Below, piece after piece: positions 1,531 through 1,584 of a stretch of 64,000 nucleotides of DNA (its first letter is position 1; each line of letters opens with the position of its first letter). The translations under genes and the position numbers were made by a program. Under the pieces are notes generated by a model. It made no database searches. It was not told where the DNA came from and saw only the letters and a list, made by a program, of their open reading frames with translations. The stretch is from Escherichia phage Pu-Krd-SF1, in sequence record PQ249395; one strand, 5' to 3'.

Positions 1531-1584
1531 GTTTACAAGTCCCTCGTGTTGTGTTACAGTAGTCTTACTGACATAACATGAGGA
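1531..1584 (+). repeat. 54-bp leader repeat, copy A (promoter-like GTTTAC...TACAGT plus SD-containing hairpin) upstream of alc
   Basis: 53/54 identical to 14619..14672; GAGGA at 3' end can pair with upstream CCTC. Confidence 0.7.

Follow-up and report, generated by a model that had tools for sequence, protein, structure and literature searches.

An early-type promoter nested in a predicted Shine-Dalgarno-pairing hairpin is repeated before alc and alt.-3 in the T4-like Escherichia phage Pu-Krd-SF1

We describe a 54-bp cassette that occurs twice in Escherichia phage Pu-Krd-SF1, once before alc and once before alt.-3. It is probably a composite of the promoter-early stem-loop (PeSL) type, in which a predicted early promoter lies inside a hairpin whose 3′ arm is the downstream 5′ UTR with its Shine-Dalgarno (SD) sequence, and which would confine translation of the downstream gene to the early phase of infection. 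Within this explanation, we infer the transcription start, the masking of the SD in vivo and the purpose of the arrangement. The window analyzed here is the whole stretch of 64,000 nucleotides from sequence record PQ249395, which is oriented opposite to the T4 GenBank record. It belongs to a Tequatrovirus (T4-like phage), with 100% identity over 15 kb to Escherichia phage Pu-Krd-SF6 and approximately 96–97% identity to its closest relatives outside the Pu-Krd isolates. Gene names follow the T4 annotation (AF158101) and the list of open reading frames (ORFs) in the window, and the coordinates of all features are collected in Table 1.

The two copies of the cassette, A and B, are identical at 53 of 54 positions and mismatch solely at element position 27, which is C in A (1557) and T in B (14645). 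A search of 100 dinucleotide-preserving shuffles gave no match to the 54-bp repeat, and a repeat finder independently listed the pair as a 54-nt family, which bears out the repeat as it had been described at both places in an earlier reading made from the letters alone (the sequence-only reading). The edges of the repeat are sharp, since its first base is the G of GTTTAC and its final base the A of GAGGA, and the flanks of the two copies are unrelated (25 nt on the 5′ side, 12 nt on the 3′ side). The repeat is therefore not part of a larger duplicated coding segment, a case that the earlier reading had itself raised and that is ruled out here. The nearby duplication of alt and alt.-1 (12207, 14259) does not include the 54-bp element, and a larger duplication was rejected as its origin. 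In that duplication remnant, the start of alt (12207–12237) recurs at the start of alt.-1 (14259–14289) with 30 of 31 positions identical. The second alt paralogue has decayed to alt.-1 and alt.-2 in T4 and in the window, and T2-like phages retain the duplicate as a full-length second ADP-ribosyltransferase gene.

A genome-wide search for further copies had also been proposed; when run, it gave no third copy at up to 3 mismatches within the window, and none in T4 at up to 16 mismatches across 130 kb. Among 498 phage records, the element occupies approximately two places per record. Other repeats in the window include two tandem 288-nt direct repeats (27347–27922) that are 77% identical to each other, and a GGGACC-GAAA/CGAA-GGTCCC hairpin with an A+T-rich lead-in that is present in three copies (14975–14996, ~30091–30107 and ~31449–31465). 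An Rfam search of positions 1–16000 returned no match at copy A or B. Its only match there was the Rhizobiales sRNA Atu_C8 at 7282–7365, which is sub-threshold (31.4 bits; gathering score, 50), coincides in part with a terminator hairpin (7330–7351) and is most likely due to chance.

Copy B is not purely a leader in Pu-Krd-SF1, because the alt.-2 remnant ORF overlaps it with its final 29 nt, and the alt.-2 stop codon TAG (14645–14647) includes the single difference between the copies. In T2-like phages, copy B is fully intergenic and is preceded by the full-length second alt gene. The convergent late genes 54 and 48 lie beyond the terminator that follows alt.-3. Alc (PF17527) and Alt.-3 (DUF5498) gave no alignment with each other by BLASTP and are, judged by their sequences, unrelated proteins. 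With two loci, unrelated genes and haplotypes common to both loci (see below), the cassette behaves as the portable module that had been proposed. In phages UFV06 and FL08, the first of the two adjacent alc ATG codons is replaced by ATA, so that the second (1592) is the conserved start, as in the T4 annotation.

Table 1. Features of the window that are discussed in the text.
Feature	Position	Strand	Remarks
rnlA (gene 63)	403..1527	+	Stop codon 1525-1527; upstream neighbour of copy A
Copy A of the 54-bp cassette	1531..1584	+	rnlA-alc intergenic; orthologous copy in ~498 Tequatrovirus records
Predicted promoter, copy A	1532..1560	+	-35 TTTACA, 17-nt spacer, TG 1552-1553, -10 TACAGT 1555-1560; 9/12 consensus matches
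Predicted hairpin A (RNA)	1537..1587	+	5′ arm 1537-1561, loop GUCU 1562-1565, 3′ arm 1566-1587
Predicted start, copy A	1566..1567	+	From Pe133295 geometry
Shine-Dalgarno GAGGA of alc	1580..1584	+	Paired in predicted hairpin
alc, inhibitor of host transcription	1592..2095	+	Alternative ATG at 1589
Sister cassette before cd.2	4207..4268	+	Pe133295 orthologue; -10 at hairpin apex; z = -4.17
Sister cassette before 30.8	7380..7439	+	Hairpin encloses -10, pairs SD; z = -3.73
Sister cassette before 30.7	7772..7840	+	Hairpin encloses -10, SD outside stem; z = -4.45
Late promoter TATAAATA	12179..12186	+	5′ of alt; candidate source of late read-through RNA into copy B
Copy B of the 54-bp cassette	14619..14672	+	5′ of alt.-3; first 29 nt overlapped by alt.-2 remnant ORF
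Predicted promoter, copy B	14620..14648	+	-35 TTTACA, 17-nt spacer, TG, -10 TATAGT 14643-14648; 10/12 consensus matches
Predicted hairpin B (RNA)	14627..14674	+	Core stem as in A, basal extension shorter
Predicted start, copy B	14654..14655	+	From Pe133295 geometry
Shine-Dalgarno GAGGA of alt.-3	14668..14672	+	Paired in predicted hairpin
alt.-3 (DUF5498)	14680..14970	+	Last gene of its transcription unit
Bidirectional terminator hairpin	14975..14996	.	Closes unit 3′ of alt.-3

Each copy carries a predicted T4 early-type sigma-70 promoter of the form GTTTAC, N17, TGnTA(C/T)AGT. The G at 1531 completes the GTTTAC of copy A, both promoters have the TG of an extended -10, and the -10 hexamer occupies element positions 25–30, with the weaker version (TACAGT) in the window’s copy A. 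The GTTTAC -35 and the TAnnnT -10 that had been picked out by eye are thus confirmed, with a spacer of 17 nt in both copies. Promoter-like consensus matches are no more frequent in this A+T-rich DNA than expected by chance (55 found, 59.8 expected), so that the identity of the promoter rests on profile and position. On a profile of 30 other GTTTAC-type T4 early-promoter sites, scored outside the positions by which those sites were selected, the two copies reached 6.2 and 10.5 bits; random windows scored -29.4 ± 9.6 bits, with a 99th percentile of -7.5. These scores support the T4 early-type character that the earlier reading had given the element. The PeSL description includes an A+T-rich tract upstream of the -35. 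The 40 nt on the 5′ side of the element are 75% A+T at copy A and 62% at copy B (window, 64%), and A tracts lie close to the -35 in both. Neither the late promoter TATAAATA nor the TGCTT motif, and hence no late or middle promoter, was found inside the element.

The predicted RNA fold nests the promoter in a hairpin. The -10 is close to the apex of this hairpin, and the SD belongs to its 3′ arm, at a distance of 4 or 7 nt from the two possible alc start codons and of 7 nt from that of alt.-3. The segments CCUCGUGUU/AACAUGAGG, GUGU/ACAU and CAGUA/UACUG stack into a single stem of approximately 18 bp, which contains a 2-nt bulge and is capped by a GUCU loop. Hairpin A has a predicted stability of -25.7 kcal/mol (z = -4.65) and hairpin B of -23.0 kcal/mol (z = -4.57), and none of 200 shuffles was as stable as either. 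The strong SD-holding hairpin that had been proposed is accordingly found in the folds of both copies. Its 9-bp CCUCGUGUU/AACAUGAGG pairing and inner CAGUA/UACUG pairing both exist, but the earlier description understated the structure, which the GUGU/ACAU pairing extends to approximately 18 bp. A role of the SD as a RegB target was rejected, since the sequence is GAGGA and lacks GGAG.

The same arrangement can be followed beyond Tequatrovirus. Alc homologues comprise a Tequatrovirus group with identities of 95% or more and, at less than 60% identity, many distant genera. An rnlA–alc spacer of approximately 60 nt is also present in Gelderlandvirus, Karamvirus, Bragavirus, a group of Klebsiella phages and others, where the layout of GTTTACA, anti-SD 5′ arm, -10 in the loop, SD in the 3′ arm and ATG is kept and the stem sequences themselves differ between genera (UCUCCAUUUGGUU/AACCAAAUGGAGA, UCCUCAUCAG/CUGAUGAGGA, ACCUCUCAUUUU/AAAAUGAGAGGU). 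A covariance model built solely from nine non-Tequatrovirus alc leaders recovered copies A and B of the window, with scores of 26.5 and 26.9 bits (E ~0.002). Across 27 distinct alc leaders, 93.9% of cells were standard pairs against 73.6% after shuffling (0 of 500 shuffles reached the observed value), as counted by our own pair count on the covariance-model alignment, which leans towards the model structure; that alignment was used because plain MAFFT placed the 3′ arms out of register. The conserved helix is nevertheless safe, because slid-partner controls, in which 30–45% of cells pair, and the raw sequences agree. Double-sided (compensatory) changes were present in 12 of the 17 pairs. This covariation signal stems from the comparison between genera and not from within Tequatrovirus, where the pair-preserving changes in the 5′ arm are few and all transitions (p ~0.06 by a simple count). 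Taken together, these alignments suggest that an SD-sequestering helix, as predicted by folding, has been maintained at alc by compensatory changes. Three alc leaders from IMG/VR contigs have no GTTTAC promoter and carry a G+C-rich, terminator-like hairpin approximately 95 nt upstream; a separate small hairpin 3′ of it still pairs the SD (GGUUCCAUCA...UGAUGAGGACC).

A different use of the hairpin, in the sense of the authors who described PeSLs, would be to terminate or attenuate the rnlA or alt RNA before the promoter restarts transcription, with the SD falling in the stem only incidentally to packing into approximately 60 nt. We regard this as unlikely. An RB49 PeSL stem-loop did lower expression of a downstream lacZ to an extent comparable with a strong terminator (PMC2839356), there is little intergenic room (a conserved ~60 nt), and a minority of alc leaders, of four types, place their hairpin around the -10 or the spacer and leave the SD unpaired. 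However, the RB49 effect was measured in a transcriptional fusion vector (PMC2839356), so that it bears on termination or RNA stability and is silent on SD masking. There is no U run 3′ of the stem in the window (flanks ACUUUAUG and ACACAAAAUG) or in the other genera compared, where the A-rich 3′ flanks argue against a terminator, and both hairpins were absent from the list of a terminator scan. A canonical intrinsic terminator was rejected on the negative scan and the missing U tract. In most alc leaders, moreover, covariation ties the 5′ arm specifically to the bases that flank the SD.

It is improbable that the hairpin serves chiefly in RNA processing or stability, as an RNase III-type cleavage site or a 3′-protective hairpin for the rnlA or alt message. 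A continuous stem of 18–22 bp situated exactly at gene boundaries would be long enough for a double-strand RNase, but no evidence of processing at the element was found, and many of the sister cassettes in T4 have much shorter stems. Processing would also not account for a 3′ arm that, in most lineages, has its end at the SD, nor for a promoter that is always nested. A palindrome acting at the DNA level without any role in RNA (a protein-binding site, a cruciform or a recombination hotspot) seems very improbable, even though the repeat is an imperfect inverted one that the covariance model also matches on the opposite strand, and exchange between the two copies evidently occurs. It is complementarity and not sequence that is conserved across genera, unlike the pattern expected of a protein-binding site. 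In addition, 13 cells hold G-U pairs on the sense strand against 6 A-C/C-A cells, which would be G-U if the antisense strand were transcribed, and these counts modestly favour a role in sense-strand RNA.

The preferred reading, in which the SD is masked on some RNAs and free on others, depends on where transcription begins. The 5′ arm (element positions 12–31) overlaps the promoter spacer and the -10 hexamer, and it therefore lies upstream of any start that the element’s own promoter would direct. The annotated T4 early promoter Pe133295 has its GTTTAC at 133330 and an orthologue in the window at 4207; if the number in its name is the start coordinate, as the form of the name suggests, transcription would begin 35 nt past the G of GTTTAC. 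Applied to the cassette, this geometry predicts a start near element position 37. RNA from the predicted starts is unstructured (~0 to -3 kcal/mol; z = -0.57 for A and 0.03 for B, folded over 14654–14710; ~0 to -1.4 kcal/mol in a second set of folds), and its SD is free. The promoter’s own transcript would thus lack the 5′ arm, and the hairpin could form only on transcripts that read through from upstream; masking of the SD would be expected solely on RNA that enters from rnlA or alt. The sequence-only reading had instead let the promoter’s own transcript fold CCUCGUGUU onto AACAUGAGG as a cis-acting translational switch, a version that retains the predicted stem and SD sequestration, both sound, but that is hardly credible given a 5′ arm upstream of any start and an unstructured RNA from the predicted one. 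Our literature search found no primary 5′-end data set for T4, no 5′ ends for alc or alt.-3, no paper on the promoter of either gene, and no structure-probing or translation data for their leaders.

Several features of the upstream regions bear on the supply of read-through RNA. A MotA-box-like middle promoter (ATGCTTCC, then TACTAT) is present at 352–376, approximately 27 nt 5′ of the rnlA ATG, and its motif also occurs in T4 at 137516. On this strand of positions 1–16000, TATAAATA is found only at 6356 and 12179. The terminator scan detected no canonical terminator between the promoters upstream of rnlA and alt and the respective cassettes. In time-resolved omics of T4, both the RNA and the protein of alc and alt.-3 are classed as early, the RNAs of alt.-1 and alt.-2, next to alt.-3, as middle, and rnlA as early at the RNA level but late at the protein level (PMC9697503 supplement). 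This timing pattern fits an own early promoter combined with silence on read-through RNA.

On the SD-masking explanation, host RNA polymerase would start at approximately element position 37 in the first minutes of infection and produce a short leader (ACUGACAUAACAUGAGGA...) without the 5′ arm, whose SD would be open and from which alc or alt.-3 would be translated. RNA arriving from upstream, namely middle-mode rnlA transcripts at copy A and late alt transcripts at copy B, would carry both arms; the stem of ~18 bp would then bury the SD, and the downstream gene would not be translated from this RNA. The cassette would in this way limit synthesis of Alc and Alt.-3 to the period of early-promoter activity and uncouple it from the upstream genes, which are expressed later. 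Alc has to act in the early phase, on cytosine DNA only, and the products of the upstream genes are needed later, RNA ligase/tail-fibre attachment in the case of rnlA and the virion-packaged Alt in the other. If masking works as we infer, it would explain how these two proteins stay restricted to the first minutes of infection.

The copy before alt.-3 appears to be the younger one. In CC31 (Karamvirus) and a Klebsiella phage, the alt.-3 leader combines an early promoter of the ordinary kind, a small hairpin in the spacer and an SD that is not masked, and resembles the alc leader of the same phage in the promoter core only. The alc-type leader at alt.-3 is thus specific to Tequatrovirus. Under the proposed mechanism, the alc version would be ancestral in Tevenvirinae and would have been copied over the resident alt.-3 promoter in Tequatrovirus, and ectopic gene conversion would keep the two copies alike although they are 13 kb apart. 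We compared the haplotypes of both copies in nine genomes and added further copies from IMG/VR contigs. In the window, T27C is confined to the alc locus, and ACG-C40 carries it at both loci; UFV06 has G29A+G32A at both loci, FL08 has it at alc and T2 at alt.-3; T2 also carries C11T+C15T+G16A at alt.-3, a set that ph0021 carries at alc; and G32A is carried at the alc locus by some genomes and at the alt.-3 locus by others. Recurrent ectopic gene conversion across the 13 kb is the simplest reading of this distribution of sequence variants. Variation is concentrated in the 5′ arm and the loop, and positions 41–54 (5′ UTR and SD) are almost invariant. Variants of the basal stem (C to U facing G, G16A facing U, and A41G) leave it paired. 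The common variant G29A+G32A turns the -10 into a perfect TATAAT at the cost of one apical pair, which indicates that the apical stem is not strongly constrained.

The cassette is not the singular module that it had seemed to be; it is one of a genome-wide class of early promoter/stem-loop cassettes that have been published as PeSLs. On the + strand of positions 1–16000, five of the six GTTTAC sites (1531, 4207, 7380, 7772 and 14619) have a TAnnnT -10 at the apex of a hairpin (z = -3.7 to -4.6) and lie 57–66 nt before an ATG; the remaining one (11896, within gene 30) is without a -10 and does not fold significantly. Across the 130 kb of T4, at least 10 pairs enclose the -10 at 24 of 34 GTTTAC-type sites, as against 31% of control SD-ATG sites. 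The SD pairs with pre-start sequence at 15 of the 34 (44%), a modest excess over the 26% of controls. The hairpins of alc (-24.4 kcal/mol), dexA (-23.7 kcal/mol) and alt.-3 (-23.0 kcal/mol) are among the most stable in T4. Other cassettes are also repeated in T4 (AF158101: 57989/20611; 146874/55383; 166806, 53942, 27079, 70695), with approximately 35–45 nt of near-identical sequence in common within these groups, stems included, so that the alc/alt.-3 pair is the tightest example of a wider pattern.

We put forward, as a tentative possibility, the broader claim that the early sigma-70 promoters of T-even phages may be systematically built into SD-masking hairpins as a genome-wide insulator for early-only translation, with the alc and alt.-3 copies homogenised across essential genes. 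If this were true, many early genes (15 of the 34 T4 candidate sites) would be translated only from their own promoter-proximal transcript and would be silent on middle and late read-through RNA, as a mirror image of the switch at e, soc, 49 and I-TevI.

Among individual T4 promoters, Pe133295, between cd.2 and cd.3, shares with the cassette the GTTTAC -35, the 17-nt spacer, the TGn-extended -10, the A-rich upstream tracts, the distance of 57–66 nt to the ATG and the placement of the -10 at the apex of a hairpin. It differs in that its stem sequence is unrelated to that of the element, and its main hairpin ends short of the SD, which only a weaker outer helix of the predicted fold reaches.

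At T4 e, soc, 49 and I-TevI, translational masks with nested promoters are established, in which long upstream RNAs fold the SD or AUG into a helix, and a promoter within the 5′ arm or adjoining it yields a shorter RNA from which this arm is missing and which is translated (Uzan and Miller, 2010; PMC3014915). The nested promoter in these cases is a late one (TATAAATA), and translation is delayed until late in infection (PMC3014915). The cassette resembles them in that its SD lies in a predicted helix on RNA from upstream. Its own nested promoter, however, is of the early sigma-70 type, and TATAAATA is absent from both copies, so that the predicted effect is the opposite, with translation only early. 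On the predicted folds, the cassette is akin to these masks with reversed timing and is not a strict member of the group. The literature that we searched, which lay outside Miller et al. (2003) and the figures and supplement of the PeSL papers, contained no description of the alc/alt.-3 pair and no early-promoter version of an SD mask.

The closest relatives of the cassette are the PeSLs of T4-like phages (Arbiol et al., 2010, PMC2839356; Comeau, Arbiol and Krisch, 2014, PMC4122927), which have been shown to recombine with each other (PMC2839356) and whose class has been extended to PST and T4 with the consensus TTTACW-N17-TAYWAT (PMC4122927). [quoted passage not shown] Like them, the element is an intergenic cassette that runs from the upstream stop to the downstream ATG (in copy A, from the rnlA stop to the two alc ATG codons), with sigma-70-like boxes (TTTACA-17-TATAGT in B, TACAGT in A and TATAAT as a natural variant), a stable stem-loop that overlaps the promoter from just past the -35 to the SD, and the SD and start codon at its 3′ end. 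PeSLs recur in a genome as related copies; likewise, the element is present in two near-identical copies, whose haplotypes occur at either locus in different phages, and sister cassettes lie in the window and across T4. It differs from PeSLs in that their authors describe no SD masking and the element’s 3′ arm is the SD, without a U tract; its copies are far more alike (53/54) than PeSLs are in general, and they lie 13 kb apart across essential genes instead of flanking a small ORFan. On its sequence features, the element is a member of this known class and not a new kind of element. If masking is true, the role of many PeSL stem-loops would shift from termination to translational insulation, and the cassette would be a compact, naturally portable promoter-plus-insulator part with natural compensatory variants. 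As it stands, it conforms well to a class already described, in the phage group that has been studied best.
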